Below the pieces are notes generated by a model that was not told the DNA's origin, ran no database searches, and saw only the letters and a program-made list of their open reading frames with translations. A stretch of 64,000 nucleotides of DNA from a virus: positions 1 to 64,000 of the IMG/VR virus record IMGVR_UViG_3300045988_081432, one strand, 5' to 3'. A program made the translations under genes and the position numbers. Positions 3,313-60,784 of the stretch are shown here, piece after piece (the stretch's first letter is position 1; every line of letters starts with the position of its first letter).

Positions 3313-3756
3313 TTAACCTCCATAACGGCAATAGTAATCTACGATTGACTTATGACTAATTTCATGGTCTATATTCCAAGTGCTATGATAAGCGTTTTTC
3401 CAAGGGTCTTGTTTGGTGACAATTTGTGCTAAAGCACTTGTAGAATATTTGGACAAATAATCAAGCATATCATTCATAAGTTGTTCGTCTTTCCGATTAT
3501 TAATCTTATTTTTGAATTTATCTGGTGGAATCACCCCACAGCCATAATAGAAATATTCGTGATAAACCTCTTCAACGACTGGGCCAAAATCCCAAGCAAG
3601 CAACTTTTCATTATAGCATGGTTTTTTCTTGTTTGCAAGAAATGTCACCTGTAAAAAATACATTTGTTTTGCAAGACGAAGATTGTTGGTTAAACGTCCT
3701 TGGGTATTCTCGTACCAAATAATATATTCTGCGACATCAAGTGCTTTGTAAGCCAT
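3313..3756 (-). CDS. Panacea / DUF4065 (SocA/GepA-like) domain protein
   Basis: N-terminal pattern ALDVAEYII...LTNLRLAKQMYF...LLAWDFGPVVEEVYHEY matches the DUF4065 consensus (KLQKLLYF...AW.yGPV..evY) as I recall it. ATG at 3756 with GGAG RBS. Confidence 0.65.
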   Translation of the reverse strand: MAYKALDVAEYIIWYENTQGRLTNNLRLAKQMYFLQVTFLANKKKPCYNEKLLAWDFGPVVEEVYHEYFYYGCGVIPPDKFKNKINNRKDEQLMNDMLDYLSKYSTSALAQIVTKQDPWKNAYHSTWNIDHEISHKSIVDYYCRYGG

Positions 3757-3764
3757 ATTATTCT

Positions 3765-4022
3765 TTACTCCGTAATGCAACGATTGCTTAGTTTCTTATA
3801 AACATCCTCGTATAGCTCACCTTTATCTCCGTTAAATGTGTATTCTGCGAGAGTATTATCTACTTTATTGCTAACGATACACTTCCAGTTTTGGAGAGTT
3901 TTACAAGACCATACAACAAAAGTGTCATTAAACGCAATCTTTACATCGCCAAATTTATAATTCCAAAGAATATATTCTACACGGCACTTATCCTGAAACT
4001 CACTCATGCTACTAATTTTCAT
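3765..4022 (-). CDS. hypothetical small phage protein
   Basis: 85-aa ORF with RBS GGTGA. The VWSCKTLQNWK...YTFNGDKGELYEDVYKK block resembles a small conserved Firmicutes-phage family (recollection only). Confidence 0.5.
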   Translation of the reverse strand: MKISSMSEFQDKCRVEYILWNYKFGDVKIAFNDTFVVWSCKTLQNWKCIVSNKVDNTLAEYTFNGDKGELYEDVYKKLSNRCITE

Positions 4023-4067: not shown

Positions 4068-4571
4068 TTATTCACAATATAACTTAACTAAACCGTCTCT
4101 TAGTGTCTCTTTTAAATCAATTACTCTTTGATTTCTACTCCCACGCCATTTTAGAGTAATATCATGCTGAGATTTAATATATTCCCCATCTACTAAGACA
4201 TCAATATATTTAACAATCTCTTGAGTATCACTTCTATTCATTACTTCCTCATACTCATATCCAGTCCAACACCAAATATCTTTTTGAGGGAACTTTTCTT
4301 TTACTAATTTAACAAGGCGAGTAAGTTCTGGAATATTCTCTTTCTTTAGTGGGTCTCCACCACTAAGAGTAAGACCAGAAATATAATCGTGGTTTAGATA
4401 ACTGAGAATTTCATTTACTGTGTCGTCAGTAAACTTGCTCCCGTAATTGCTGTCCCAAGTTTCAGGATTTTGACATTCATCACAACAATGGTCACAACCA
4501 CTTACCCAGAGAACAACTCTTACTCCCTCTCCATTTGCAATGTCGTATTTTGTTATCTTAGCATAATTCAT
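4068..4571 (-). CDS. nrdG: anaerobic ribonucleotide reductase activating protein (radical SAM)
   Basis: GCDHCCDECQNPETW Cys cluster near the N-terminus and LSGGDPL motif. TAATG overlap with the nrdD stop; RBS AGGAG. Confidence 0.8.
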   Translation of the reverse strand: MNYAKITKYDIANGEGVRVVLWVSGCDHCCDECQNPETWDSNYGSKFTDDTVNEILSYLNHDYISGLTLSGGDPLKKENIPELTRLVKLVKEKFPQKDIWCWTGYEYEEVMNRSDTQEIVKYIDVLVDGEYIKSQHDITLKWRGSRNQRVIDLKETLRDGLVKLYCE

Positions 4572-7500
4572 TACTGGACTCCTAGATGAACAACTCGCTC
4601 TTTAATCTCTTGTGTGCGACCTTGATTCCAGTCATTAGTACCAAGATAACCACAAGTTCTACGCACGATGTTCATTTTTGATTTATCACGATTTTTACAA
4701 TTTGGACATTCCCAAACTAGCTTACCATCATCATCTTTTACGATTTGGATTTCTCCGTCATAACCACAGACCTGACAGTAATCACATTTGGTATTTAGTT
4801 CTGCATACATAATGTTGTCATAAATAAACTTGATTACAGAGAGAACAGCCTCGACATTATTATTCAAGTTAGGTATTTCTATATAACTTATGGCACCACC
4901 CGGAGATAGTTTCTGAAATTCGCTTTCAAATTTCAATTTTGTAAAGGCATCAATCTTTTCGGTTACAACAACATGATAAGAGTTTGTAATATAATTTCTA
5001 TCTGTAATACCCGGAATAACACCGAAACGCCTCTTTAGGCACTTGGCAAACTTGTATGTAGTGGATTCGATTGGGGAGCCATACAAACTATAATCAATGT
5101 TTTCAGAGGCTTTCCATTCATTACACTTATCATTCATGTATTGCATGATTTCAAGTGCGAACGGTTTTGCTTCATCACTTGTATGACTCTTGCCAGTCAT
5201 AGCAAGAACGCATTCGTAGAGACCAGCATATCCTAGACTAATGGTTGAATAACCGTCATACAGGAGCTTATCAATCTTCTCTCCTTTCTTTAGACGAGCA
5301 AGACCTCCATGTTGCCAATGAATTGGAGATACATCTGATAGAGTACCAAGAAGTCTATTATGGCGAATCTGTAGCGCCCTGTGACACAACTCAAGACGTT
5401 CGTCAAAAATCTTCCAGAACTTATTAAAATCTTTGTTTGCACTTAAACCGACATCTGCAAGATTAATAGTAACAACGCCTTGATTAAAACGTCCGTAATA
5501 CTTCTTTCCCTTAACCCAGTTATTAGCATTCGCTAAATTCTCTGTCGTGCGGTCAGGAGTTAGGAACGAGCGACACCCCATACAGGGGAAGCAATCACCC
5601 TTATATTCCAGCATTTTCTTTTCTGAAATATAATCTGGAACCATACGCTTTGCTGTACATTTAGCGGCAAGCTCTGTTAGATAATAATACTTATCTCCCT
5701 CATGGATATTATCTTCTTCTAGTACATAAAGAATCTTTGGGAATGCAGGAGTAATCCATACCCCCTGTTCATTTTTAGTTCCTTCAATTCTTTGCTTTAG
5801 AACCTCTTCAATGAGCATTGCGAAGTCGTCTTTTTCTCTGCCATCATTTACTTCATTTAGATAAAGGAAAATAGATACAAATGGTGTCTGCCCATTAGTC
5901 GTCATCAAAGTATTAATTTGATACTGAATTGTCTGGACTCCGCGTTTAATTTCTTCTTTTAGACGACCTTCTGTAATCTCATTAATCTGTTCATCCGTAG
6001 CATTTGAATTTAACAGAGCAACTTCTTCCATTACTTGCTTTCTGATTTTCTTTCTGCTAACGTCAATAAACGGAACAAGATGAGCTAATGATTCGCTCTG
6101 GCCTCCATACTGATTGCTCGCAACCTGTGCCATCACCTGAGTCGCAATATTGCAAGCAGTTGCAAAACTATGAGGCTTCTCAATTAGAGTACCGTTAATC
6201 ACAGTACCATTTTGGAGCATATCTTCCAGATTAATTAGGCAACAGTTTCCAGTTATAACGCCGCCGTCAAGAGTAAAGGAATGTGTTTCTGGCTCTTCGA
6301 CGCACCAAGCATCATATTCAATCTCTGGACGATAAGGCGTAATTTTCTTTACGACCCATAAATTGTTTGTATTTTGATATTTTCTGAACCGGAAGTTAAT
6401 TAGTCTAGCGTTTTTCTTAAAGTTTGTGTCATGGACAGTTTCGGATTCGCTTGCAATATAAAATCCCGCGATAGAGGAAATATCACGAATCATTTCTGCA
6501 ACTCGGTCATCAACGGTAGAGACTCTATTGGTATCAACAGCTCCATCTGCCGCATAAAAACCATCAAAAAGAAATTGCTTTCTTTTTCCATTTAGGAAGC
6601 GCCATGCTTTGGCGTTCAAGAAGTCTTGCTTAAAAGCGTTCTTACACAAAGCGTAGGCATCTCCATGATAAGATTCTGGATATGTGACAGTGTAACCAGC
6701 CCTTACAAAGTAATCTACATATACTGATTTTTCTCCACATAAGCGAACTGTTGTATACCCGGATTTCTTATCAACGCCGTCTCCAATCGCAAAACCAATA
6801 GCCCATGCTTGGTAGTCTTCTTTTGACTTCATTTCATATTTAGACAATTCAGGTAGAGACGCGAGAACCATTCCTTCTTTTAAATTCGTCGTTACACTTC
6901 CGTCATTTAATAACCATCTGTGATTGGAGGTACAGAGGACGTGCTTAATTGAACGACCGGACTGAATCATAACATCTTGCATTTTTTGTTTTCCGTACTT
7001 TTTTACGGTAGCAATATGCCATTCGCCATCAGAGCCAATAACCTTAACAGTTTCACCATCATTAAAATCTCTAAATTCTTTTACGCCATCATCCGTTACA
7101 AAACGCGTGTTGCCCTTAAAACAGTTGTGCATCCGTTGAATCGCATAGTCAGAGTCATGAAAATGAATCAAGCCTTGCTCATGTGCTTCACGAATGTCTT
7201 TTGGAAGAATCAGACGATTTACAATATCACGGCTTACTTCACCAGCAATATAATCACGTTGCGTAGCTGCAATTTTAGGATTCTTGTTACTGTTTTCTTG
7301 AATTACATCTTCATTTACGCCATCAACAATAGACAAAATTTTACCATCAGTCGTATTACCGTTTCTAGCAAGCTGGCGCTCATAACGATAACGAATATAC
7401 GTTTTTGCGACATCATAATAACCGCGTTGCATCAGAAGTGATTCAATTGCATCTTGAATATTTTCGACAGATACGGCGCAATCTTGTGCTTTAAAATTAT

Positions 7501-7651
7501 TATATACTTCTGTGGCGATTGTCTGAATTGCAATCTGCGGCATCGCTTCCCCACCGCTTTTTTCTACCTCGTCGCTTGCTTTTTGAATTGCAAGCGTTAT
7601 CTTTCCTTTTTGGAACTTGTCTTCACGACCATCACGCTTAATTACATTCAT
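4571..7651 (-). CDS. nrdD: anaerobic ribonucleoside-triphosphate reductase (class III), intein-containing precursor
   Basis: ATP-cone-like N-terminus (VIKRDGREDKF), C-terminal Zn ribbon CDYCQVCG...CPNC and glycyl-radical motif RRTCGYLG. 1026 aa, of which 293 aa are an insertion. Confidence 0.9.
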   Translation of the reverse strand: MNVIKRDGREDKFQKGKITLAIQKASDEVEKSGGEAMPQIAIQTIATEVYNNFKAQDCAVSVENIQDAIESLLMQRGYYDVAKTYIRYRYERQLARNGNTTDGKILSIVDGVNEDVIQENSNKNPKIAATQRDYIAGEVSRDIVNRLILPKDIREAHEQGLIHFHDSDYAIQRMHNCFKGNTRFVTDDGVKEFRDFNDGETVKVIGSDGEWHIATVKKYGKQKMQDVMIQSGRSIKHVLCTSNHRWLLNDGSVTTNLKEGMVLASLPELSKYEMKSKEDYQAWAIGFAIGDGVDKKSGYTTVRLCGEKSVYVDYFVRAGYTVTYPESYHGDAYALCKNAFKQDFLNAKAWRFLNGKRKQFLFDGFYAADGAVDTNRVSTVDDRVAEMIRDISSIAGFYIASESETVHDTNFKKNARLINFRFRKYQNTNNLWVVKKITPYRPEIEYDAWCVEEPETHSFTLDGGVITGNCCLINLEDMLQNGTVINGTLIEKPHSFATACNIATQVMAQVASNQYGGQSESLAHLVPFIDVSRKKIRKQVMEEVALLNSNATDEQINEITEGRLKEEIKRGVQTIQYQINTLMTTNGQTPFVSIFLYLNEVNDGREKDDFAMLIEEVLKQRIEGTKNEQGVWITPAFPKILYVLEEDNIHEGDKYYYLTELAAKCTAKRMVPDYISEKKMLEYKGDCFPCMGCRSFLTPDRTTENLANANNWVKGKKYYGRFNQGVVTINLADVGLSANKDFNKFWKIFDERLELCHRALQIRHNRLLGTLSDVSPIHWQHGGLARLKKGEKIDKLLYDGYSTISLGYAGLYECVLAMTGKSHTSDEAKPFALEIMQYMNDKCNEWKASENIDYSLYGSPIESTTYKFAKCLKRRFGVIPGITDRNYITNSYHVVVTEKIDAFTKLKFESEFQKLSPGGAISYIEIPNLNNNVEAVLSVIKFIYDNIMYAELNTKCDYCQVCGYDGEIQIVKDDDGKLVWECPNCKNRDKSKMNIVRRTCGYLGTNDWNQGRTQEIKERVVHLGVQ
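6245..7123 (-). mobile_element. intein with LAGLIDADG homing-endonuclease domain inside NrdD (aa 177-469)
   Basis: Host sequence MHN|C...GN|CCLINL. Block A CFKGNTRFVTDDG, block B TSNH, LAGLIDADG motifs AIGFAIGDG and LFDGFYAADG, C-terminal ...HSFTLDGGVITGN followed by Cys+1. Confidence 0.85.
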
Positions 7652-16988: not shown

Positions 16989-17288
16989 ATGATTTCTGAT
17001 AAAGAACTTTTTAAACAGATGGCCGACCGTGATGTTGTAAATCTATACCGTTATCTTATTTACAATCTTGCTGGTGGTACGAGTATTGCTACTTATGCAA
17101 GTTTGTTTGAAGATAAGATTTTGGGATATGCTAATATTGGTGTGGATAAAGCCTGTGATTGGCTGTTTGGTAAAGATGTCGGTTGTGACATTGACGAGGC
17201 GGCTGATATCGCACAAGCTGTTGTTTCTGATAAGATTGAAGAATACCGCAAACGTGTTAAAGAACAACGTGCGGCTAAAAATGCGTAA
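16989..17288 (+). CDS. hypothetical protein
   Basis: ATG 16989 lies 8 nt after AGTGAGG. The track start GTG 16980 is an alternative. Confidence 0.5.
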   Translation: MISDKELFKQMADRDVVNLYRYLIYNLAGGTSIATYASLFEDKILGYANIGVDKACDWLFGKDVGCDIDEAADIAQAVVSDKIEEYRKRVKEQRAAKNA

Positions 17289-17333
17289 TAACATTGTAAC
17301 ATAATTGATAGTCCTAATAAATAGGTGATTATT

Positions 17334-17702
17334 ATGAGATGGCCTATCGTGACCGTTACATCACTTGATAGCTCTGCTGCTGGTGTGGACGTATTAAAGG
17401 CAAATCCTATATATACTATAGAAAGTTTGCCCTATCCAAGACGCTATTATTATTTTGCCTTACTCATTAAGGTTGGTTTTGAATTTAATGATAATAAGTC
17501 TCTCTTGCTGACAGACAATGATGAAGTCAACAAGTATCACCTTGTTGACCGTCTTGGCAATGCAGTCCTTGCTTCTCAGGCTATTGGGTACTCTCAGAGC
17601 CAGAGATTAATGTACTGTATGTATGACGATGTAAAGAAAATTGTCCGCGTTCTAAGTCCTCTAGCTCCTACTGATTATTATATTGAGGGTTGGCTTACTT
17701 AA
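17334..17702 (+). CDS. hypothetical protein
   Basis: ATG 17334 preceded by TAGGTGA. This initiation region is repeated at 22007-22025. Confidence 0.5.
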   Translation: MRWPIVTVTSLDSSAAGVDVLKANPIYTIESLPYPRRYYYFALLIKVGFEFNDNKSLLLTDNDEVNKYHLVDRLGNAVLASQAIGYSQSQRLMYCMYDDVKKIVRVLSPLAPTDYYIEGWLT

Positions 17703-17725
17703 TAATATAATAAGGAGTGGAAGGA

Positions 17726-18262
17726 ATGGTATTAAACAACGGTATTGCCCCATGCGGTACGATGTCAAGATGTTGTTGCTGTAATATGCGGCTTATTTGT
17801 GCTAAATCCCCTTACTGTGTTATAAATTCAGGGAGTGGTTCTTCTGATAAGAAACTGGAAGAGATTGAGAATCTTATCCAGCAATTAATCCAGTCGCAAG
17901 CACAAGCACTTGCTGACCTTGAAACAAAAGCTACTGCCGCTCAAGCTAGTTTAAATACAATTACTGCTAATATAGCAACATTGCAAACGACTAGTGATAA
18001 TTTAACGACAGCATTTGGTGAATTTGCACAAGATACAAAAACTAAGCTAGACGAAATCTATGCTAAAGTAGAAAATATACCAGCGACCAGTACAACTTCT
18101 GTCAATGATTTAGATACACCGATTGATGTAGATTCTTCTGATGTATCAGAGGATGATTCAAAATCACTTACTGTATTAAAACCAAAAGAAACAGAAGATA
18201 CTATTCTGGTTGAAAAGAAAGGCTTATTTGGTAAATCCAAATGGGTAGAACAAAAGAAATAA
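17726..18262 (+). CDS. hypothetical protein, Cys-rich N-terminus plus coiled coil
   Basis: ATG 17726 lies 8 nt after AAGGAG. N-terminus CGTMSRCCCCNMRLICAKSPYC. Confidence 0.5.
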   Translation: MVLNNGIAPCGTMSRCCCCNMRLICAKSPYCVINSGSGSSDKKLEEIENLIQQLIQSQAQALADLETKATAAQASLNTITANIATLQTTSDNLTTAFGEFAQDTKTKLDEIYAKVENIPATSTTSVNDLDTPIDVDSSDVSEDDSKSLTVLKPKETEDTILVEKKGLFGKSKWVEQKK

Positions 18263-18469
18263 TTTTGAGTTAAATTTTAGAAATTATAGACCCTTTAGTG
18301 AGTATAAGTTATTGTACTTAGTAAAGTGTCTATAATATTTTGTTATAGACATAATTTGAAATTTAACTTATAGGTGTGCGCCCGTATGTGCATGAAAGGA
18401 AAACATTATGACATTTGGTAAAAATGCGAAGAATAATCACCTTTATATTTATAAGGAAGGTGATGTAGT

Positions 18470-18655
18470 ATGAAGTATGAGAAAGAAAAATATTTCTCTT
18501 GTTATTCTCCTAATCTTAAAGAATATCTGGAAAGAAATGGATTTGAACCTATTACTTCGTTTGTACACATCAGAGAGAATAAGACTTGTTGGGTATTTGA
18601 GAAAGTGCCTGAGCTATCTATATATCTTGAACAGTGGACTCGCAATCGCAAGTAA
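18470..18655 (+). CDS. small hypothetical protein
   Basis: 61-aa ORF with RBS AAGGAAGGTGA. Preferred over the overlapping 18477 frame. Confidence 0.5.
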   Translation: MKYEKEKYFSCYSPNLKEYLERNGFEPITSFVHIRENKTCWVFEKVPELSIYLEQWTRNRK

Positions 18656-19047
18656 AGGGTAAATTATATGAAAAATATTGTAAGAAATTTTCTGTTGCTA
18701 TCGTAGTATTTGTGACTACATTTATCACAGTTTATTATTCTGTTGTGTATGCAACAAAGAAACAGATTGTATTTGATGGTTCTGATATTCTAATAATTAT
18801 TTTCTTTGGCTTACTATCTTTGATGGTCGTGTTTATGCTACTTTATATCAATTCTAAATTAAACTCATTCTCTAATGCTCTATCTGATATTTCTAATAAG
18901 ATTGATATATCAGAAGAAAACATGATAAATTTAGAAAAGAGTACGCAGAGAATTATATTAAAGGAAGTAAAAGAGAATAGGGAATTTAAGGGAAAAATTT
19001 TAGAAAGGATTGAGCATGAAGAGAAATCCGAACAGCAATCGGAGTAA
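18634..19047 (+). CDS. hypothetical membrane protein; start uncertain
   Basis: Two hydrophobic segments followed by a charged coiled tail. No convincing RBS at GTG 18634. Contains copy 1 of the 76-bp repeat. Confidence 0.45.
   Translation: MDSQSQVKGKLYEKYCKKFSVAIVVFVTTFITVYYSVVYATKKQIVFDGSDILIIIFFGLLSLMVVFMLLYINSKLNSFSNALSDISNKIDISEENMINLEKSTQRIILKEVKENREFKGKILERIEHEEKSEQQSE
18867..18942 (+). repeat. 76-bp perfect direct repeat, copy 1
   Basis: ATTCTCTAATGCTCTATCTGATATTTCTAATAAGATTGATATATCAGAAGAAAACATGATAAATTTAGAAAAGAGT, identical to 19289-19364. Confidence 0.9.
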
Positions 19048-19297
19048 AAGATGGGTAGAAAGAAATTGCCTATCCTCTGATAGATGCGTGTCTTATGTAA
19101 AGGATTTATGTGAAGCTTATGGCATTAAATATAAAATTTCTGGCGATAAGCTTTTTGTGGATTCTGATGGGATTTCCTATCGGGTTTATCCTGACTATGA
19201 AAATATATGTATAATTGCAGTAAATAAAATAACTGGTGAGAAAAAATGGTATGACGGAGATTCATGTTGGGTTGACTTCATATTAGATATTCTCTAA
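19016..19297 (+). CDS. hypothetical protein
   Basis: ATG 19016 with RBS AAAGGA. The gene lies between the two repeat copies. Confidence 0.5.
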   Translation: MKRNPNSNRSKRWVERNCLSSDRCVSYVKDLCEAYGIKYKISGDKLFVDSDGISYRVYPDYENICIIAVNKITGEKKWYDGDSCWVDFILDIL

Positions 19298-19364
19298 TGC
19301 TCTATCTGATATTTCTAATAAGATTGATATATCAGAAGAAAACATGATAAATTTAGAAAAGAGT
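19289..19364 (+). repeat. 76-bp perfect direct repeat, copy 2
   Basis: Identical to 18867-18942. Overlaps the stop of 19016-19297 and abuts the promoter at 19366. Confidence 0.9.
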
Positions 19365-19365
19365 C

Positions 19366-19394
19366 TTGACAACTTCTGTATGTTGTGCTATATT
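19366..19394 (+). promoter_or_regulatory. sigma-A type promoter with extended -10
   Basis: TTGACA (19366-19371), 17 nt, TGC-TATATT (-10 at 19389-19394). Confidence 0.65.
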
Positions 19395-19442
19395 AACAAT
19401 GGAAGCAAATAATTCCATAAAATAGTACAAGGAGAAGTCGTT

Positions 19443-19940
19443 ATGAGTGTTCCACTAAGTTTGTTAATTTATAATCCAATTGAAGCATATATCTTGATTT
19501 TGTTATGTGATGTTATTGCCGAGAATGACACAAAGTTTACCATTAAAAGAGCATTACTTTTGTGGGATTTTGGTGCGACAAATTTGTTTATCCAGCTAGT
19601 TCCGTATATTTGGTATGGGAAATGGTTCTTTGCAATTTTTAATGTTTCTGTGAATTATATAATAATACCATTTTCTATCATGTATTATTACAGAATTGTG
19701 TCTTGCCGCATAGGTTATTTTAGATGTTTTATTTCCGAATTAATCAATTGTTTGTTTATAATAATCATATCTAATATATTTGATTTGTTAATAGATAAAT
19801 ATGATATGTTCTTTTCAAGAAGTATATTTCACGAATTTATATCAAATATGACTATATTTTTCGTGCAAATTATACTATATTCTATTATAAAACATAGGAG
19901 ATTTTTATATGAAAAACATTTTCAAAACTTTCGCAAGTAA
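19443..19940 (+). CDS. polytopic membrane protein (unknown function) in the agr-like module
   Basis: 165-aa ORF with about 5 hydrophobic segments. RBS AAGGAG. Confidence 0.55.
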   Translation: MSVPLSLLIYNPIEAYILILLCDVIAENDTKFTIKRALLLWDFGATNLFIQLVPYIWYGKWFFAIFNVSVNYIIIPFSIMYYYRIVSCRIGYFRCFISELINCLFIIIISNIFDLLIDKYDMFFSRSIFHEFISNMTIFFVQIILYSIIKHRRFLYEKHFQNFRK

Positions 19941-20037
19941 CTGTGTTGAAAAAGCCTTTACTTCTCTCGGTCACTACCAGCCTAAGATGCCAAATTCTCT
20001 GATGGAAAAGGCTCAGAAGGAAAATAAGGAAGACTAA
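19909..20037 (+). CDS. agrD: AgrD-like autoinducing-peptide precursor candidate (42 aa)
   Basis: AGGAG RBS 8 nt upstream of the ATG. Translation MKNIFKTFASNCVEKAFTSLGHYQPKMPNSLMEKAQKENKED: amphipathic N-terminus, YQPKMPNSL resembling the clostridial AgrD recognition motif (H)QP(E/K)xPxxL, and a charged tail. Confidence 0.5.
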   Translation: MKNIFKTFASNCVEKAFTSLGHYQPKMPNSLMEKAQKENKED

Positions 20038-20080
20038 TCTTCCCTTATCCTTATATTATAGACATTGTAGACTTTAATAT

Positions 20081-20116
20081 AGGGAGTCAGTCTTTTGGCT
20101 GGCTCCCTTATTTTTG
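20081..20116 (+). terminator. Rho-independent terminator
   Basis: 12-bp stem AGGGAGTCAGTC / TTTT loop / GGCTGGCTCCCT (two G:T pairs) followed by TATTTTTG. Confidence 0.65.
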
Positions 20117-20138
20117 TGTAATAAAGGAATATTCTGTT

Positions 20139-20744
20139 ATGGATATTTTTAGATATATTGAAGACGTATCTTATAAACTCGGTTTAAAAGTTGCAAATTA
20201 TTTCCATGAAGACAAGGATGGGATTGAAGAGACACAATATGGGATGTTCGCTATTTTGAGTTTCTTGTTTGAGTTTGGAACTGGACTTATTATATCTCTT
20301 ATTTTTGGATATGTCAAGTATTTTCTTGTATTTCAAATTACCTATTGTTTTCTACGTTCTGTTTGTGGTGGAGAACATTGCAAAACATTTGCATCTTGTT
20401 GGGCAGTAACAAACATTATCTCATTTGTTGGAAGTATGATAGCTATTTTATTATCCGTAAACAGTATGTTTGTAATGATTGGAGTTATTATTACATCTCT
20501 GGCATCTGTTGATATGTTTTATATTATTCCGAAACCAAGCGAAAATTCTCCTAGTAGAGGGAGTAGAGATATCGAGTTTAAAAGACGCTATATTGAGGGG
20601 ACTTGTGTGTTAATTTTCTTAGCTTGTATTTTGGCGTTTTTTGATATAAAGTTTGTTTCTGCTTCTATTTGCTCTGCTTATATTATGTGTTATATTATGC
20701 TATCTAAATATGGCGAAAAATTTATGACTCTATTTAAGTTTTGA
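20139..20744 (+). CDS. agrB: AgrB-family membrane peptidase (cyclic-peptide maturation)
   Basis: 201 aa, polytopic. LRSVCGGEHCKTFASC gives the R..GG.H-x6-C pattern (His80/Cys87), equivalent to AgrB His77/Cys84. Later IIPKPSENSP...FKRRY loop. Confidence 0.7.
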   Translation: MDIFRYIEDVSYKLGLKVANYFHEDKDGIEETQYGMFAILSFLFEFGTGLIISLIFGYVKYFLVFQITYCFLRSVCGGEHCKTFASCWAVTNIISFVGSMIAILLSVNSMFVMIGVIITSLASVDMFYIIPKPSENSPSRGSRDIEFKRRYIEGTCVLIFLACILAFFDIKFVSASICSAYIMCYIMLSKYGEKFMTLFKF

Positions 20745-20874
20745 TTAATTAAAGACCAGAGGATAGGGATATTAAGCTGCTATCGCCCGTTGTTAGGAGA
20801 TACAGGTTCTTTGGCTTGCCTGTCTGGTCTTTATTATTTATAATTGTAGAACCAGCTTTAAAGAGGTGCGTTCT

Positions 20875-21141
20875 ATGATTATAAATGATTTAGCAACAAT
20901 AGCAAATTCTGATTTAATATCAGGAGCTGCAAACATTAGTCAATTTATAAATGTTTATCAAGCGACTAAAGGTGCGACATCATCTCAGTTAAATACAGAG
21001 CTTATTAAGCAAAACCAACATATTGAAAATAAACTTGACGAACAAACGAATATGTTGCTTGAAAAACTATTGTCTGAATTAAAGATTATAGAAGAACAAA
21101 ATATTGAAATAATTAAACTGTTGGGTGGCGGCGTCAAATGA
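20875..21141 (+). CDS. hypothetical protein
   Basis: ATG 20875 with RBS AGAGG. Confidence 0.5.
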   Translation: MIINDLATIANSDLISGAANISQFINVYQATKGATSSQLNTELIKQNQHIENKLDEQTNMLLEKLLSELKIIEEQNIEIIKLLGGGVK

Positions 21142-21362
21142 TTCTTAATACTAATGCAGAATTAGGTGGATTAGATGCCCTTGGTGTTGCAGATACAATT
21201 ATTGCTTCATTATTATTAAATTATTCTGAGAAATCTTATAGGTTAAATCTCGATAATACCTCAGAAAATAAAAAAGTTATTTCTCTATTAAACGAAATAA
21301 ATGAAAATGAAAAAACTATTATTTCTTTATTACAAAGAATAATAGAAGATGATAAGCATTAG
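21138..21362 (+). CDS. hypothetical protein
   Basis: ATGA overlap with the upstream gene. Similar C-terminal E.N..II.LL pattern to its neighbour. Confidence 0.5.
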   Translation: MILNTNAELGGLDALGVADTIIASLLLNYSEKSYRLNLDNTSENKKVISLLNEINENEKTIISLLQRIIEDDKH

Positions 21363-21503
21363 TCTTGTCTTATCGGTAAAATAATCCAGACTAAATAAAC
21401 GAGTGACGGTTCTGACTCGTCGTAAAAATAAAAATTGACCGAGCGATGATTCACGACAGGGAATAAAAGGGGTCAAAAATATTATAGAAAGTAGTGGATA
21501 TCA

Positions 21504-21974
21504 ATGGGTGTATTGCAAATTATTATTAATATTTGCTCTACTTTTGGTGTGTCTGGACTCCTTTTGTTCTTTGTGAAAAGGCACTATGAAAAGAAAGACG
21601 AAGCTTTAAAAGAGGGAAAGCGGGAGAGAAGAGAAATCAAGGATGCGATTGATAAAATTGCTAAACAAAACGAAGAGCAGTATGCAATGATTGCATTTCA
21701 AAAGGATAAGATAAGTTCTCTTTCTGATGATGTTAAGGTTTTAAGAGAGCAAGGAAATCAAAATTCACAAGCGGATAGAGATATACTTCGGGATGCGATG
21801 TTAAGGACATATCATAATTGTTATGAAGTCAAAGGTTGGATTTCTGTTAATGACTTAGAAAGTTTTCAACACATGTTTGAGAGCTACACAGCGTTGCACG
21901 GTAACGGAATGATGCCGTCTGTTCATGAAAAAATTTTAAGTCTACCAACTATTCCACCTGAGAATAAATCTTGA
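21504..21974 (+). CDS. hypothetical membrane-anchored protein
   Basis: N-terminal TM segment (ICSTFGVSGLLLFFV) followed by a charged coiled region. Confidence 0.5.
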   Translation: MGVLQIIINICSTFGVSGLLLFFVKRHYEKKDEALKEGKRERREIKDAIDKIAKQNEEQYAMIAFQKDKISSLSDDVKVLREQGNQNSQADRDILRDAMLRTYHNCYEVKGWISVNDLESFQHMFESYTALHGNGMMPSVHEKILSLPTIPPENKS

Positions 21975-22021
21975 ACATTTCATTAAATTATAAAATCACT
22001 TTTAACAAATAGGTGATTATT

Positions 22022-22351
22022 ATGACAGTAAATGAATCTAAAAATATTATCCAAAAACTAATTAAGTATTCTATTTGTGAACTTGAAACGGCAGAGTGTT
22101 ACCAAGAACTAATGGGCTGTGTTGAAGACTCTTCTATGTTTTCCAAATTCAAAGAGTTTGCAAATGAAGAACTAACTCATTACGAGTATGATTTGTCAAC
22201 CGCAATGGTTATGGCTCAAAAATTGAAAGACAATGGTGATATTGCGGATGTTGATGAAATGATTAGTAATATCTATAAAGAGAATGAGACAGACTGGAAG
22301 AATAAGATTGTCTGGAAAATTGCTAACACTAAGTTAAAAACTTCTCGCTAA
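22022..22351 (+). CDS. hypothetical protein
   Basis: ATG 22022 preceded by TAGGTGA. Confidence 0.5.
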   Translation: MTVNESKNIIQKLIKYSICELETAECYQELMGCVEDSSMFSKFKEFANEELTHYEYDLSTAMVMAQKLKDNGDIADVDEMISNIYKENETDWKNKIVWKIANTKLKTSR

Positions 22352-22654
22352 ATGATGCTAGATGCGTGGCTAGAGGTCGTTAAACAGCGACGATAAATGT
22401 TGAGAAAACCAGTACATTACTACGGTATTGTATGGTTTCAAAACTAATTATGATTTATACAGCTGTATGTTAGTACGAGGCGCTGATGAATTTTAGTAAC
22501 CGTTTTTAAGTATTAAAGAATACGACCGTATAAACCATATAGAAATGTTTGTTGCTATGGCAACTATCCATAAGTAAAGATGCTTGTGGATAGTAACGAT
22601 GGCAATAAGTCATCGGCTGAATTAAAGGGGTATTTGGTACAGAAAGGAGTACAC

Positions 22655-23830
22655 ATGGAAGATAGTCTACTAAAGCGTAAGGACGAGACCGATAAGGAAT
22701 ATGGTTTACGTCTAGCTATCAATAAAGACGTATACGATATTAGCTGGTCTAAAATTTGTGACCTTATGTTTGAAGCAACTGGCGTAAGAAAAGACGAAAG
22801 TGCTTATCGTAAATATTATATGGCATTCCTTGATGGAGTTGATTATCAAAAGAATAAAGACCCGTCTGAACAAATGGACGAGTTAATGAATAAAGAGCTA
22901 GATATTAAATTAAAAACTGTCAAGATGCGGGATTATAAAGCAGCGCTTAACCGTGATGTTAATAAGATTGCTCGTTTTGATATGCTTAAACAAGACATTT
23001 CAGACTATGTTATTAAAAATCATTTGGAGTTTAATGATAATAAAAGCAACTTTTCATCAACCGAGAAGAGTGCTATTTTATGCCTATCTGATTTCCATTA
23101 TGGTATGGTGACTGATAATTATCTTAATAAATATAATCCTGAAATCTTCCATGAGCGCATGACCAAACTTTTTGACACAGTTGTTAAGAAGATTTATTCT
23201 GAAAAGATTGGTGCTCTGTACGTTATTAATTTAAACGATGCTATTTCTGGATATATTCATAATACTGTTCGGATTGAGAATCGTAAGAATGTTATTGAAC
23301 AGGTAATGGAAGTTTCTAATGCTTTGGCAGAGTTTCTAAATGGGCTTTCTCAACATTGTAATATTGAATATTATTCTGTTATTGATAATCATTCTCGTTG
23401 TATGGCTAATAAGTATGATAGCTTGCAAAATGAAAATTTTTCTCTACTTGTTGACTGGTATTTGAAAGCAGCTTTACATTATGTCCATAATATTCATATT
23501 AATGAGAACGAATTTGATAATGATATTTTAACATTTAGTATTTATAACTGGAATTATCTAGGCTCTCATGGAGACAAAGACAGTATTCATGATATAGTTC
23601 AGAATATGACGCTTTTAACCCATAAGTTCTATGATGCGATGTTTATTGCACATAAACACCATGTAGAGTCTAAAGAAGTTGATGGAACTATGGTTTTTAT
23701 GAATGGTTCTCTTTGTGGTACAGATAACTATGCAAAGTCTTTGCGTATCACTTCTCACCCTTCCCAGACTATGTATATTGTCACCCCTGATAATCCCTAT
23801 GAATCTATAAATATTATCCGTTTGGATTAA
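22655..23830 (+). CDS. calcineurin-like metallophosphoesterase
   Basis: Ordered motifs LSDFHYG, NLNDAISG, VIDNHS, GSHGDKD, AHKHH. ATG 22655 with RBS AAAGGAG. Confidence 0.6.
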   Translation: MEDSLLKRKDETDKEYGLRLAINKDVYDISWSKICDLMFEATGVRKDESAYRKYYMAFLDGVDYQKNKDPSEQMDELMNKELDIKLKTVKMRDYKAALNRDVNKIARFDMLKQDISDYVIKNHLEFNDNKSNFSSTEKSAILCLSDFHYGMVTDNYLNKYNPEIFHERMTKLFDTVVKKIYSEKIGALYVINLNDAISGYIHNTVRIENRKNVIEQVMEVSNALAEFLNGLSQHCNIEYYSVIDNHSRCMANKYDSLQNENFSLLVDWYLKAALHYVHNIHINENEFDNDILTFSIYNWNYLGSHGDKDSIHDIVQNMTLLTHKFYDAMFIAHKHHVESKEVDGTMVFMNGSLCGTDNYAKSLRITSHPSQTMYIVTPDNPYESINIIRLD

Positions 23831-44314: not shown

Positions 44315-45552
44315 ATGGCGCAATCTCAAAGTGATATTTTTAGTTTTCTAATTACACCTGAATTTGATACCAAAGGTGTCACTGACAGCGGAAAATATCT
44401 TGAAGAAGAAGTCAAGCAGATAGCAGAAAAGATATCAAATCAGATTAGCGAAGTCATGGGGAGGGGCTTTTCTTTCCCGAAAAATTTCAAAAAAGATGAT
44501 ATCAACGAAGTCACAAAACTAGTTGAAAGTTTAGGTGGCAGTGTAAAAAGAACTGGCGAATATATTACATCGTCTTTTAAGGATGCAAGCGGAACAACTG
44601 TAACGCTAAAGCAAAATTTAAAAGACGCAATAGATGTAGCAGAAGCAGAAAGCCTAAAGGCTGCCAAAAATATTCAAGAAGTAATCAACATAAGAAAAGA
44701 GTTTGAACAACTAAGAACTTCTACCGCTACATATTCTGGCGCAGAGCAAACCAAAGAGCAAAATCAACTTGAACAAAATATTATAAAAAGTATCGAAGAA
44801 CAATATAATTACCGACTAAAAATTATTGATGCTCAGAATAGTGGCAACAAAATTCAAGAGAACTATTATACAGAGCTTTTAAATATTGCAAAAGGCGAAG
44901 AACAGGTATACACAATTCAATATAACGGTTCTCAGAATAATATAAAATTTAAAAAACAAGAACTTGCACAAGAAGAACGACTCTATCAAAAAAAATCTGA
45001 TTCTGTAAAACAAGAAAATGAACTCGTTAATGCTATTAAACAGTATGCAAAACAATATCAGACTGTCAAGCAATTAGAGAGCAAAGGTCAACAAAACACT
45101 CAGGCTTATACTGATGCTAAAAATGCTTTACAGCAGCTAACAAATACTTTAACAACGTATGGTGTTAAAGTTGTAACAAGCTCCGACGGTACAACAAAAC
45201 TTGTAGCACAACAAAATTCAATGGCTGACAGCTCCAATAAGGTCAAAACAGCGTTGGACAATGCCAATGGCAGTTTAGCAAAAGCTGATACTGCACAAAA
45301 TTCCATATCGAAATCTATTCAGTCTAGTGTAGAGAATTTTATTAAATATCAGGTGGTTATGGAAGCCATCAACAAAATCACTAGCGAATTTACATCTGCA
45401 ATTTATGATATGAACCAAGCCATGACACAAGTTCGTATGGTTACAATGGGTAGCTATGAAGATACTGTAGCATTGGCTGATAGTTATACTAAATTGGCAA
45501 AGCAACTTGGTACTACTACGACCACGGTTGCAGAAGGCGCAGATGCTTGGCT
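44315..45552 (+). CDS. tape measure protein, exon 1 of 3
   Basis: Coiled-coil-rich ORF with RBS AAGGAGG. The frame runs into junk plus a stop right after ...GADAWL. Confidence 0.7.
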
Positions 45553-45920
45553 TAAATGTCTAGGTCAAGTAAAATCTCTCTAATTGCTGGAAAGTCCTTA
45601 GAGCTTTGATAACCAAGTTATTATAGTGATATAATAATGGCTGAACTAATCATTCAGGCATGGTAAAATAATCGAAGATTGGATAATCAGCAGCCAAGAT
45701 TCTTAAATATTTATAATAAAGCTATTAAAATATTTCAATAGATATGATATAATATTTAAGAATAAGGTTCATCGACTAATTGTAAGGGCAAGTGCTCTGA
45801 AACGGGAGATACCTTGTTAAATTTAACAGATAAAGATATAGTCAGAACTTATGTAGAAATACATAGAAAATCCTATATGGAATCTTTTGATAAGTGGCGA
45901 TTATTAAGAGTAACAAATTG
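45553..45920 (+). mobile_element. ORF-less group I intron 1 in the tape measure gene (368 nt)
   Basis: P1: exon CUUGGCU (45546-45552) pairs with intron GGUCAAG (45563-45569), with a terminal U:G. The intron ends in G (45920). Splicing gives ...ADAWL|RQGYNAQEAMEML. Confidence 0.65.
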
Positions 45921-46496
45921 AAGACAGGGTTATAATGCTCAAGAAGCAATGGAGATGCTAAAGCAGTCAACTACGTTGGCTGTTGTTGGTCAATTGGACG
46001 CAGCTTCTAGCACTGACCAACTTACGGCAATCACAAAATCCTATAATGTAGCTGTAGAAGATACAAGCAAAATCGTAGATAAACTTGTTGCGGTTGACTT
46101 AAATTATGCCGCTAGTACAGGTGAAATCTCTACAGCATTACAAAAAGTCGCTAGTTCTGCTGGACAGGCAGGGTTAGGGCTTGATAAACTAATCGGTCTA
46201 ATTACAATTTCCGAGGAAAAGACTCGACAAGCGCCAGAAGTTATTGGTTCCGCTTGGCAGAGTATTATCGCGCGTATAGGTAAAATCACAGCAAAAGTAG
46301 ATTTAGATGACCTTGTTGATGAAAATGGCAAGGTTGTGGCTACAATTAACGATGCTGATAAAGTTTTATCTAAATATGGTATCAATTTAGTTGACACTAG
46401 TGGTAAAATGAGAGACATGGGAACCATTATGGACGAAATCGGTGCTAAATGGGGTCAAATGTCTACTCTTGAACAAAACCAGTTGGCTTATGTGGT
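45921..46496 (+). CDS. tape measure protein, exon 2 of 3
   Basis: The frame is open from 45922 through the track ORF 45949-46521. The junction keeps the reading frame. Confidence 0.65.
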
Positions 46497-47532
46497 TTTA
46501 AGTAGCCACAATACGAAGTAATTCGTAGGTGTTTATAACACTACAACATTCCTATATCGGTGAACCCTAAGTTTGTACAAATAAGGGAATACCGAGATAA
46601 TTTTATTATGAAGGATGGTGGAAAAGGAATGGATTTTTATTCCTTGTCACAAGATGAAGTTTCAGTTATTTTAGGTGGGTTGCTTGGCGATTCATGTTAT
46701 AAAAAACGAGATAACGTCATCGTATTTTCTCACTCAGCAAAACAAAAAGAATATTTGTCTTGGAAACATGATATATTATCAGATATCTCGTCTGATATTC
46801 GCACAAGAGTAGTAGGAAAATCTATTATTACAGATGAAGAATTGGTTAATGTGTCATTTTCTACAAAAACAAATAAAAAATATCACTCCGATTATAACTC
46901 TATAAGAACCCTAATATTTTCCAACGGTAAAAAAACAGTCAATAGAAAATGGCTTAATATGCTCACACCTTTATCATTGGCCGTTTGGTGGATGGACGAT
47001 GGGTGCTTGTCCGTTCATAAGAAAAAAGATGGCGCTATTTCAAGATTTGGTAAATTAAGTACAAATGGATTCTCATACGAAGAGCAAAAAATTATGAAGG
47101 ATTATTTCAAGACGGTTTGGGATATTGATGTAAAAATAACCCCAGAAAAGGGAAATTATTTCTTGAGATTTACAGTCCCGAACTTAAAAAAACTATTCTT
47201 AATTATATATCCATTTGTAATGCAAGTGCCAGACATGATTTATAAGATAAATATGAAATATAAACTAGAAAAACTGAGTGATGACGACGAGTATAAAGTA
47301 ATACAAACTATTATATACGATACTCTCGATAATAAAAAATCGTAACGACTAAACGAGGAATGCTCCTTATATCAAACACATCTCTTATTGTTGGGATGTG
47401 TTTTGTTGTATAAGGATGAAAATATAGTCTGAACTATAAGGAAACTTATAGAAGAGCGGTCAAGTGTAAAGACACTTTTAAGGAGAACCGTTCTCGCCTA
47501 TTTTAATAATAGGTCACAAAAGTAACAGATTG
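46497..47532 (+). mobile_element. group I intron 2 in the tape measure gene, carrying a homing endonuclease ORF (1036 nt)
   Basis: P1: exon UGUGGU (46491-46496) pairs with intron GCCACA (46505-46510), with a terminal U:G. The intron ends in G (47532). Splicing gives ...QLAYVV|AGVRQRNVFIAAMEDY. Confidence 0.65.
46560..47345 (+). CDS. LAGLIDADG homing endonuclease (intron-encoded); start uncertain
   Basis: Two LAGLIDADG motifs: VILGGLLGDSCY and LAVWWMDDGCL. Confidence 0.75.
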   Translation: MNPKFVQIREYRDNFIMKDGGKGMDFYSLSQDEVSVILGGLLGDSCYKKRDNVIVFSHSAKQKEYLSWKHDILSDISSDIRTRVVGKSIITDEELVNVSFSTKTNKKYHSDYNSIRTLIFSNGKKTVNRKWLNMLTPLSLAVWWMDDGCLSVHKKKDGAISRFGKLSTNGFSYEEQKIMKDYFKTVWDIDVKITPEKGNYFLRFTVPNLKKLFLIIYPFVMQVPDMIYKINMKYKLEKLSDDDEYKVIQTIIYDTLDNKKS

Positions 47533-50500: not shown

Positions 50501-52021
50501 GGTTTTATCAAAGTTCTGAATAGTGATATATTCCAAAATCTCGCTGCTAACTTGTTAAATAGCATAGATGGCGACACTCTAAAACAAGCTCTTTATTCTT
50601 GGAATAGACTATTTGGTTCTGGTATTGATGCCGATGTTACAAATACATTACAGGCATACGGTACTGCTGGGAAATATGGGTGGACTCCCGGTAAAAATAT
50701 GCAAGATTTCTTGAATATGTTTACTCAAGGCTCTAACACCCAACAACAAATCCTTGACCAAGTAGAACAGGCCATTTCTTCTAATAAGGCTGGCAATCTT
50801 GATATTTCTGGATATAAAAATAACATAGATTTCTTGAACAAGTCTTGGGACTCTTTTAAGCAAAATGCTATTGATAGCGTTACTCAAGTTGGTGAGAGTT
50901 CTCAATCCATTGTTAAGAACCTCTGGGATTTCGGCAACAAAATGCTTAATCAAGAATCTGCTTCTGGCAGTGGTGTTGTACGAACTATCGCAAAGGGTAT
51001 TTCCACCACTATAAAAAGTGGTAAAAAGGGAATATCTACATTTCTGCAACAAGGCATTCAGGCTAACCAAGCTCTAGGCATTAGCGGGCAGGGTATACTA
51101 TCTCAAGTTGGTAACTTTGCACAAAATATCATGAAGCTTGTCGGAGGTTCTGGCGGTGGCATCTTAAAAACTACAATACAGTTCGGCAGTACACTATTAG
51201 GCAAAATTAGTGGAACCTCTTTGAGCTTAGCAAAGGGAATTACAACGGTTGGTGGAAATGGTATTGCTACTATCGGCAATTTAGGAGTACAAGTTCTTAA
51301 ATCTCTGTCTGGTGTGGCAACTAGCATTTTTGGAAGTAGCGCTACCGCAGGGATTACTAGCATGATACCAACACTAGGTTCTGCCGCAGGAGGTCTTGGT
51401 AGTGCCGCTGGGTTACTCGGTCTTGGGGCAAAAGGTGGCCTTATCGGATTAGCTGTGGCTGGTGGAGCTATTCTTTCAAGTGGTATCAAATCTAATCTTA
51501 AAAATCTTTGGGGGTCTAACTTACCAACATGGAAGAAAGTTACTGGAACCGCACTTAATTTCCTCACTCCGGCGGGCTGGTTCTCAGGTTTTAAAAACCT
51601 CCTTTTTGGTCGTCACCACTCTGGTGCTGATTACGTCAAAAAACAAAACCCCACATTGGATAAGATGCTTGGGTTAGGGAGTGACGAAACTGTTTCTATC
51701 CTAAAAGTCGGTGAAGCAGTTGTACCTACATGGGCAAATAACGCTAGTAGTTCAGCTTCTAACAGTAACTACACTGGCGCTGCAACTCAAGCTGTAAGAG
51801 CCGCCCAGCAAGCTTCCAGAATATCTTCTTCCGTTAACAATAGTAACAGCTCTGTGGTGAATACAATATCTATTCCTATTAATATTCAGGGCAACGCAGA
51901 TGAATCTACTGTTAAATTGTTGAGAGAAGAGTCGGATAAAATTGCTAAAATGGTTTTCAAACAAATAAATAAACAAACAAATATGAGTGGATACAGAAAT
52001 ATACGAGCCGCAACAATTTGA
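47533..52021 (+). CDS. tape measure protein, exon 3 of 3
   Basis: Hydrophobic segments, very long coiled coils and Gly-rich TM-like repeats near the C-terminus. The spliced product is about 2100 aa. Confidence 0.7.
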
Positions 52022-58154: not shown

Positions 58155-58203
58155 TACGCTTGTTACTATTTCGTTGTTAAATTATTTATAAGGAGTGGAT
58201 TTA

Positions 58204-60369: not shown

Positions 60370-60394
60370 TGGGGGACTGGGGGTCGCAACCCCC
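60361..60394 (+). promoter_or_regulatory. two GC-rich hairpins immediately 3' of VR (candidate DGR target-recognition element and terminator)
   Basis: GTCCCC-TAATG-GGGGAC (60361-60377, spans the stop codon) and GGGGG-TCGCAA-CCCCC (60379-60394) followed by ATTTTT. No equivalent follows TR. Confidence 0.55.
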
Positions 60395-60530
60395 ATTTTT
60401 AATGATTATTTAGACGCTTTCGCTTGTTTTATCTAAATGGCTCCAAGATAAAACAGACTTTTTATATTTTGGGATTGTTTGTGCTGCGCCCGATGTTCTA
60501 CTAGGCATTCGACGCTAGTGGAAAACGCTG

Positions 60531-60661
60531 ACTCTGGCAGCGGTTGGCGTGTTTTGTATGTTGGTGGTGATTGGAACGGTGGGTCGAATGCCGGTCTGTT
60601 CTATTTCAATGCGAACAATGATTCTAGCAACTCGAACTCGAACATCGGGGCGCGGCTACTT
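60531..60661 (+). repeat. DGR template region (TR)
   Basis: Invariant, adenine-bearing copy with AAC/AAT codons in the VR frame. Lies directly upstream of the RT. Confidence 0.85.
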
Positions 60662-60784
60662 GTTTATTCTCCGTTTATTATCGCACAAACTCTCCCGCAC
60701 CACTTGGTGAAAATATTGCCAATTAGGAAGCGAATTAGTAGGTTTATTCTCGAAAATTTGCGCGGCAAACAAGGAGATGTTTTT

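Follow-up and report, generated by a model that had tools for sequence, protein, structure and literature searches.

A threonine-type AgrD precursor and a co-varying membrane protein beside agrB in a human-gut phage: a candidate cassette for a lactone signal peptide

The subject of this report is a cassette of three genes in a 64,000-nucleotide stretch of DNA (positions 1 to 64,000 of IMG/VR record IMGVR_UViG_3300045988_081432; hereafter the window), which belongs to an uncultured tailed phage of the human gut. The cassette spans about 1.4 kb in the order X - peptide - terminator - agrB, all on the plus strand, X being a 165-residue membrane protein, the peptide a 42-residue precursor of the AgrD type, and AgrB the processing enzyme of accessory gene regulator (agr) systems. 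The reading favored here, held at a probability of roughly 0.5, is that the cassette makes a Thr-lactone peptide and that X is the allele-matched membrane partner of the precursor. An earlier inspection of the letters (the sequence-only reading) had proposed a phage-encoded agr-like module at this place, and the open reading frames (ORFs), promoter, AGGAG box, terminator and AgrB gene that it described were all recovered where it had put them, with the 42-residue sequence exact. The phage origin of the module held as well: the 6 kb around the cassette (window 17000-23000) are 89% identical to an unannotated fecal 'Bacteriophage sp.' record, MT835481, and the gene content of the window is that of a phage.

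In the mechanism proposed, the cassette would be a self-contained accessory ('moron') unit of uncultured human-gut tailed phages, producing an agr-type peptide. A near-consensus promoter would transcribe X and the 42-residue precursor together, with a terminator limiting read-through into agrB. By analogy with known AgrB/AgrD pairs, AgrB (His80/Cys87) would recognize the YQPKMPxSLMEK tail of the precursor, cleave between His22 and Tyr23 and form an acyl-enzyme, upon which the side-chain hydroxyl of Thr18 would attack to give the five-residue lactone T-S-L-G-H. The product would be the oxygen analogue of the usual thiolactone, with Thr in place of Cys or the rare Ser. X would dock the amphipathic leader and the ring of the precursor at the membrane and escort them through AgrB processing and/or across the membrane, being used stoichiometrically with the precursor and not as an enzyme. 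The receiver would lie outside the cassette, as a host agr-type sensor that is mimicked or blocked, or as an unrecognized phage component.

The AgrB assignment of the sequence-only reading stood up to the profile search. The ORF at 20139-20744 (+, 201 residues), which starts 101 nt after the end of the peptide gene, matched PF04647 at 85.6 bits against a curated cutoff of 23 (E = 3.5e-24), over positions 3-181 of the 185 in the profile. Its GGEHCKTFASC segment places His80 (20376-20378) and Cys87 (20397-20399) at the His-x6-Cys spacing; the catalytic pair of Staphylococcus aureus AgrB is H77/C84. Residues G78, H80, C87 and P131 were invariant in 33 AgrB sequences taken from the clade and from divergent relatives (P0069 at 33% identity, others further), and AgrB identity in the close clade is 88-97%, with a ratio of nonsynonymous to synonymous substitution rates (omega) of 0.10-0.18. 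The peptide gene adjoined agrB in all related loci examined. By homology, the ORF is an AgrB-family membrane cysteine peptidase/cyclase with predicted catalysis.

The small ORF at 19909-20037 (+, 42 residues), which shares 32 nt with X in the +1 frame, is very probably a real AgrD-type precursor. It divides into an amphipathic leader (residues 1-17; 19909-19959, +), a predicted five-residue ring, Thr18-Ser-Leu-Gly-His22 (19960-19974, +), set by the register of the AgrD profile TIGR04223, and a putative AgrB-recognition tail beginning with YQPKMPNSLMEK (19975-20034, +), which matches the tail of the same profile. The leader, MKNIFKTFASNCVEKAF, was judged amphipathic by direct reading, with hydrophobic residues at positions 4, 5, 8, 9, 12, 13, 16 and 17 and polar ones at 2, 3, 6, 7, 10, 11, 14 and 15. 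The tail, YQPKMPNSLMEKAQKENKED, aligns with profile positions 25-37 and has the charged C-terminal character and the Pro motif of AgrD tails. The ORF with its own Shine-Dalgarno (SD) sequence was kept in every related locus examined, in agreement with what the sequence-only reading would require of a genuine gene, and one relative of the peptide carries the nr name 'AgrD [Caudoviricetes sp.]'. A degenerate DNA pattern for AFT-x4-YQPKxP gave a single match in the window, with 0 expected from 100 shuffles.

On TIGR04223 the window peptide itself reached only 14.4 bits (E = 0.034), through its tail alone, which is below the cutoff of 19. Orthologues in two related phages exceed that cutoff with 25.5 and 20.7 bits, and an in-silico T18C replacement lifts the window peptide to 19.3 bits, so the relationship to the AgrD family holds despite the failed cutoff. 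Since the window member misses the cutoff and its ring nucleophile would be neither Cys nor Ser, the precursor is best classed as a Thr variant of the AgrD lineage and not as a canonical member.

The register of the ring, which the sequence-only reading had set at TSLGH with Thr in the place of Cys, was confirmed on the profile: Thr18 and the ring Cys of four reference AgrDs (S. aureus, Listeria monocytogenes, Clostridium perfringens and C. difficile; sequences approximate) share profile position 23, so that the position and spacing of the nucleophile are those of AgrD and only its identity departs from the Cys/Ser rule. The clade never departs from FT and YQPKMPxSLMEK, but varies in the four residues that separate them. 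Across 35 distinct ring variants (24 separately encoded, 11 fused to X), ring position 1 is Thr in 33, Ser in 2 and Cys in none, and in each of the 35 this Thr or Ser precedes the tail by exactly five residues, across very divergent AgrBs. Thr/Ser interchange at this position is what a hydroxyl nucleophile predicts. The only Cys, which the sequence-only reading had put 11 residues upstream, is Cys12; the 11 residues count to Tyr23, and Thr18 is 6 residues away. As a ring nucleophile Cys12 was ruled out, being unconserved and replaced by Ser in most relatives.

Taken by analogy, a Thr-lactone is a reasonably probable product. An improbable alternative is that no macrocycle is made, AgrB acting only as an endopeptidase or its acyl-enzyme being hydrolyzed to leave a linear ...AFTSLGH; in a variant of the same idea, the Thr precursor would be a dead-end substrate that ties up AgrB-type enzymes. 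Such a reading would fit the sub-cutoff score of the window peptide and the terminator upstream of agrB, which suggests little AgrB relative to peptide, as well as the published descriptions of the AgrB-dependent nucleophile as Cys and rarely Ser, with Thr unmentioned (PMC4916163, PMC8251862, PMC12312760). The same sources give the five-residue ring rule for autoinducing peptides (AIPs). However, the strict five-residue placement of Thr/Ser before the tail would be hard to account for if the hydroxyl served no purpose, neither Cys87 nor His80 varies, and Ser-lactone AIPs are established (PMC8251862, PMC12312760).

The first gene of the cassette, X (p165; 19443-19940, +, 165 residues), was modeled by AlphaFold2 as a confident five-helix bundle (predicted local distance difference test score 83.9, predicted template-modeling score 0.78). 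By the positive-inside rule its topology would be N-out/C-in, with 7 Lys and Arg on the inside loops vs 3 outside, and its C-terminus ends in a basic tail of only about 15 residues, with no output domain. Conservation is complete in transmembrane helix (TM) 1 (LSLLIYNPIEAY) and partial in TM5 (EFIxN..Q), with hypervariability over residues ~25-128; among polar residues, N11, E14, N47, Q51, E131 and N135 are conserved. Looked at for a gathering of variable residues on one membrane face, TM2-TM4 showed much the same entropy in their outer halves as in their inner ones.

Searches for relatives of X returned only its own family. There was no Pfam, NCBIfam, PHROG or PADLOC match, and neither a fold nor a sequence match in the PDB (best fold E = 3.3); the sole confident match in BFVD is an uncharacterized member of the X family. 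A profile search of 1.84 billion protein representatives found 75 relatives, all of at most 206 residues and none fused to a kinase (0/75). On these results X is a previously undescribed protein family. The suggestion that the 165-residue protein might resemble an AgrC-type sensor found no support, there being no match in Pfam, NCBIfam or PHROG, no kinase-fused homologue and no structural match in the PDB; at the level of fold it may yet resemble one. A degenerate AgrB paralogue was ruled out (hhalign probability 0.6%), a known defense or exclusion protein was rejected for want of a PADLOC match, and a CAAX/MroQ-like or other intramembrane protease is unsupported, with no Pfam match and no conserved His.

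What ties X to the peptide is its genetic attachment to the precursor. X lies directly upstream of an AFT/S-type peptide in every context sampled, the weakest family matches included, and AgrB comes after the peptide wherever the contig continues, even for an AgrB of 33% identity. Eleven distant representatives have the peptide fused in frame to the X C-terminus, each with a Met where the two meet. Such fusions speak for a coupling that is physical or functional; that X is functionally coupled to the peptide is regarded as highly likely. An SD-like motif precedes the peptide Met in 6/6 forms checked, three in-frame fused forms included, so independent initiation is the simpler reading of the arrangement. 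A programmed frameshift joining X and the peptide in the window was rejected, the peptide Met having its own SD and no slippery heptamer being seen in the overlap.

The second line of evidence is the pairing of alleles, analyzed in 14 intact loci. Where two loci share the same ring, their X proteins are at least 92.7% identical, whereas with different rings X is only 35-70% identical (mean 45%), and the pairing of X with ring is one to one; AgrB is about 90% identical whether the ring is the same or different (range 88-97%). Ring groups other than that of the window (TSLGH) include TFFGH and TNFAH. The diverged block runs from about X codon 25 (19517) through the last ring codon (19974), and identity is regained 3' of the ring, precisely where AgrB is predicted to cleave. 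Promoter block, peptide tail, intergenic region and AgrB all occur in shuffled combinations with the block of X and ring. Between ring groups the synonymous divergence (dS) of the X core is saturated at 1.2-1.9, vs 0.13-0.47 for AgrB; within groups it is 0.03-0.05, below the 0.17-0.19 of the adjacent AgrB, and the only two ring-codon changes within groups are both synonymous. The dS pattern therefore points to old allele classes of X and ring moving between phage backbones, as in agr groups. Whole-gene positive selection on X was not found, omega being below 1 between groups, and the signal is, on these rates, one of ancient allele classes and not of recent positive selection. The shuffling of such classes among phages that are otherwise about 90% identical would indicate selection for distinct signal specificities (pherotypes).

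The role of X within this partnership is a softer matter. An escort, scaffold or exporter is put forward tentatively, at rather less than even odds, and is preferred because X has no output domain and, in the fusions, carries the precursor on its cytoplasmic C-terminus. A dedicated membrane partner is also plausible since the N-terminal maturation and export of AIPs are still called unresolved and S. aureus requires a second membrane factor, MroQ (PMC12312760). Behind the escort or scaffold come a receptor and, after it, an immunity protein; the ranking is soft, since one would sooner expect hypervariability in a receptor or an immunity protein.

If X were the cognate receptor, the cassette would provide a private phage-phage or lysogen-lysogen channel, an agr-derived analogue of arbitrium with pherotypes. 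The variable TM2-TM4 would sense the peptide outside, and the invariant TM1/TM5 face would relay to a conserved membrane partner. The split of X into variable and conserved parts does resemble that of AgrC, with its variable sensor and conserved output; the one-to-one pairing with the ring and the shuffling of ancient classes among backbones recall agr specificity groups; the window ORFs offer no other receptor candidate; and the integrase-family protein encoded there makes a lysis-lysogeny decision conceivable. However, X ends in its short basic tail without an output domain, none of the 75 relatives is fused to a kinase and no fold was matched, the promoter is near-consensus with no hint of an autoinduction loop in the features examined, and a precursor carried on the cytoplasmic C-terminus of X in 11 representatives would be odd for the receptor of an extracellular ligand. 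The receptor is consequently seen as a minority prospect, and a little less is granted to its specific form, a kinase-less five-helix receptor class that reads only the cognate ring and feeds lysis-lysogeny or superinfection exclusion.

In a further alternative, judged unlikely, the peptide would be an antagonist or toxin, and X the immunity or self-protection protein that shields the producer: the oxygen-ester analogue would either damage membranes or block agr-type sensors, whether the host's or those of competitors. The two genes are adjacent, translationally coupled, co-varying and, ahead of the terminator, probably highly expressed, and it is usual for a toxin and its immunity protein to diversify together as neighboring genes expressed in stoichiometric amounts. 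Bacteriocin genes often have small polytopic immunity proteins encoded beside them, and lactone and lactam analogues of staphylococcal AIPs tend to lose agonism and can keep antagonism. Yet X is frameshifted in locus L009 and carries a nonsense mutation in L015, with peptide and AgrB intact in both, and in L010 X is replaced and the peptide has no ATG, with AgrB intact; such losses would be self-harming if X were essential for immunity. Moreover, X has no PADLOC match, AIP-sized peptides are not, to our knowledge, toxins, and we know of no precedent for an immunity protein fused in frame to a toxin precursor.

Several of these observations also weigh against the Thr-lactone cassette with X as membrane partner. 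A secondary alcohol is a poorer nucleophile, the literature cited above names only Cys and Ser, and the window peptide itself falls below the AgrD cutoff. The disrupted X genes of L009 and L015 stand beside intact peptide and AgrB genes. Linkage by itself could also yield the one-to-one pairing of X and ring, the diverged block (19517-19975) being unbroken and homologous recombination able to resume only at conserved sequence. An escort or exporter is not obviously in need of hypervariability, and homology and fold give the proposed role of X no support. Finally, with so strong a terminator in front of agrB, it may be asked how AgrB comes to be expressed at all.

That the small ORF is a chance ORF, or the whole cassette a non-functional remnant, is a very remote prospect. 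There is decay in some lineages: to the frameshifted, nonsense and replaced X genes are added L018, where AgrB is cut down to its C-terminal 111 residues, and L030, where a TnpB-like insertion sequence gene lies between the peptide gene and AgrB. On the other hand, dozens of phages keep the cassette, and neither its promoter, SD and terminator nor the Thr, the tail and the catalytic residues vary; AgrB evolves at an omega of 0.10-0.18, and the ring changes within groups are synonymous.

The control elements show conservation across 13-17 related phages. The promoter (19366-19394, +), upstream of X and peptide, is of the sigma-70 type, TTGACA-17 nt-TG-n-TATATT, with 11/12 consensus matches. Sites of this class are not enriched in the AT-rich region (19 found vs 18.3 expected), and the promoter, including the TG extension proposed for it, is credited because the -35 box and the extended -10 are identical in 13 related phages and not because of the motif match itself. 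Being near-consensus, it would not obviously require an activator. The SD sequence AGGAG (19896-19900, +) sits inside the 3' end of X, 8 nt 5' of the peptide ATG. The intrinsic terminator (20081-20118, or 20081-20108 in narrower limits, +) has a 12-bp stem followed by a T-run; its predicted fold has a free energy (dG) of -22.3 kcal/mol (z = -5.8, 0/200 shuffles as stable), and it was kept in 17 loci. Its place between the peptide gene and agrB suggests that more X and peptide than AgrB would be made. Between the promoter and X, a hairpin in the 5' untranslated region (ATGGAA-N8-TTCCAT, 19399-19418; dG -6 kcal/mol, z = -2.1) is weak and partly conserved, and could be an operator or an RNA element.

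The cassette is bounded on the left by a perfect direct repeat of 76 nt (copies 18867-18942 and 19289-19364, +), the second copy ending 1 nt 5' of the -35 box. The two copies flank a 422-bp unit holding the 3' end of a 137-residue membrane ORF and a 95-residue ORF (19010-19297). An assembly artifact was ruled out, the same 422-nt spacing being found in 12 related phages; these 12 relatives retain both copies, 71-76 of 76 nt identical within each genome. Only one copy, and no unit, is present in locus L011 and in L002, which is near-identical to the window, and the repeat is therefore taken to mediate gain or loss of the unit. A palindrome, TGATATATCA (19326-19335), within the second copy is a putative operator. 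On the right, a stem with a U-run after agrB (20750-20835, +; dG -28.6 kcal/mol, z = -2.2, weak) is the probable end of the cassette. Directly behind it L002 carries an extra insert of about 1.6 kb (window 20849/20863; L002 4711-6338); L002 is 99.7-99.9% identical to the window over the cassette and upstream flank and 97-98.6% downstream. After agrB, other relatives carry a DUF6273 gene (L021/L022) or an ORF of 556 residues (L020). The site 3' of agrB looks like a hotspot of cargo exchange.

Parts of a complete agr circuit were looked for in the window. Among its 74 ORFs none matched HATPase_c, HisKA, LytTR or Response_reg at E <= 1e-4, and a complete agrBDCA circuit, with AgrC and AgrA, is not present within the 64 kb, the only part of the phage covered by this search. 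Bacterial or prophage carriers were not found among 185,579 species-representative bacterial genomes: a narrow AgrB scan for close relatives found none, and a peptide-pattern scan gave one match, a chance one, in a metagenome-assembled genome of Brevinematales. No cultured phage record carries the cassette, and its AgrB is not detectably similar to any of them by tblastn. An IMG/VR contig, 3300045988_088154, is 97-99.9% identical to the window across the regions compared. In the literature, no description of the cassette family, of a Thr AgrD or of X was found.

Besides the cassette, the window encodes NrdD, ClpP, HU, a tape-measure-type tail protein, a GH25 lysin, an integrase-family protein and a reverse transcriptase. 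The lysin domains (GH25 and PG_binding), together with SPbeta-like YonJ/YonG domains in relatives, make a Gram-positive host likely. The NrdD ORF (anaerobic ribonucleotide reductase; 4571-7651, -, 1026 residues), with NRDD, ATP-cone and Gly_radical matches, holds a candidate intein-like insert recognized by eye, with a Cys at its start and ...VITGN followed by Cys at its end. The Pfam matches among the 37 ORFs of window 1-24895 include an Acb2/Tad1 hairpin (E = 2.6e-7) and SocA_Panacea (E = 7.3e-10), domains related to counter-defense or toxin-antitoxin systems; the carrier of the latter, judged from the translation, is probably 3313-3780 (-). In the region 44315-52021, an ORF at 46560-47345, to which a LAGLIDADG_2 homing-endonuclease match was assigned from its translation, apparently lies between tape-measure pieces (44315-45583, 45949-46521 and 47570-52021), which suggests that the tape-measure gene is interrupted by an intron or endonuclease. 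A diversity-generating retroelement occupies 58195-61945: the 3' end of a 724-residue tail-fiber-like ORF (58195-60369) recurs 304 nt downstream at 89% identity (variable repeat 60227-60357, template repeat 60531-60661), 14 of the 15 mismatches have adenine in the downstream template copy, and that copy lies at the start of an ORF with an RVT_1 domain, the reverse transcriptase ORF (60479-61945).

If the Thr-lactone is real, the chemistry of AgrB would extend to a Thr nucleophile that gives a methyl-substituted lactone. The mining of AIP-like peptides that are made by the ribosome and modified after translation (RiPPs) would be affected too, since rules built on Cys or Ser together with the curated profile cutoff miss the Thr family. 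X adds a conserved third component that is genetically joined to the precursor by overlap or in-frame fusion, and such a dedicated, co-varying partner would give a testable handle on AIP N-terminal maturation and export. The specificity groups suggest that phages tune or jam the quorum sensing of particular host strains, or communicate among themselves, and either would matter to gut phage ecology; were X a receptor, the cassette would be a membrane-based, cyclic-peptide counterpart of arbitrium in gut phages. Being compact (1.4 kb, three genes), portable and naturally variant, it would make a convenient experimental system.

Compared with known systems, the cassette would work like the biosynthetic half of agr, with a bona fide AgrB, and not like a complete agr circuit. 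It shares with staphylococcal agrBDCA an AgrB with His-x6-Cys, a precursor with amphipathic leader, five-residue ring and charged, Pro-containing tail, and a hypervariable specificity block of discrete allele classes that covers the ring and the adjacent polytopic membrane protein. Unlike that system, it has Thr for Cys at the ring nucleophile, the gene order X-D-terminator-B, a near-consensus promoter and no AgrC or AgrA-type regulator in the window; its variable partner X is kinase-less and without detectable similarity to known proteins, and its AgrB is conserved, whereas staphylococcal AgrB is partly hypervariable.

With the Ser-lactone AIPs (that of S. pseudintermedius and GBAP, the pheromone activating gelatinase biosynthesis, of Enterococcus faecalis fsrBDCA) the phage peptide would share an oxygen nucleophile leading to a lactone, and two ring variants of the phage family use Ser, although 33 of 35 have Thr and the GBAP ring has nine residues instead of five. 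In fsrB/fsrD the precursor is likewise nested at the 3' end of a membrane-protein gene, in frame as in the fused relatives and probably with its own SD (PMC7028047), but the upstream gene of the phage cassette is the five-TM X, which is unrelated to AgrB at the hhalign probability given above. The functional analogy with arbitrium (AimP/AimR) and ComQXP is limited to peptide signals of phages or mobile elements that co-diversify with a cognate partner into discrete specificity types; neither is related to the cassette in sequence or structure, and arbitrium has a cytoplasmic receptor and a linear peptide.

Among phages, phiCDHM1 and the Brevibacillus phages Davies, Emery and Abouo come nearest as precedents, both uncharacterized at the peptide level. 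The C. difficile phage phiCDHM1 (agr3, agrC-agrB-agrD; PMC3901668) also carries accessory agr genes without a response regulator; it differs in encoding a HATPase_c kinase and in having agr genes with homologues in its host species, whereas the family described here has no kinase and went undetected in the two narrow scans of 185,579 bacterial genomes. Davies, Emery and Abouo, called 'Paenibacillus phages' in PMC3901668, are the closest architectural analogue, with two membrane proteins, AgrB and a 39-residue ORF beside an integrase. They have in common with the window a phage AgrB, a small Cys-free putative AgrD (gp47) and kinase-less polytopic membrane proteins. In Davies (KC595518, L040; 26243-28283) gp47 reads MNKQIAKTISKGLGTLGKVYTKFAKVSIGNPVAPKELRK and has no Cys, so Cys-free AgrD-like peptides may be a wider feature of phage agr cassettes. 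They differ in that gp44 and gp45 (219 and 222 residues) fall outside the X family (hidden Markov model E > 1), the order is membrane-membrane-AgrB-AgrD and the peptide has no FT-x4 tail motif; being uncharacterized, they give no functional guide.

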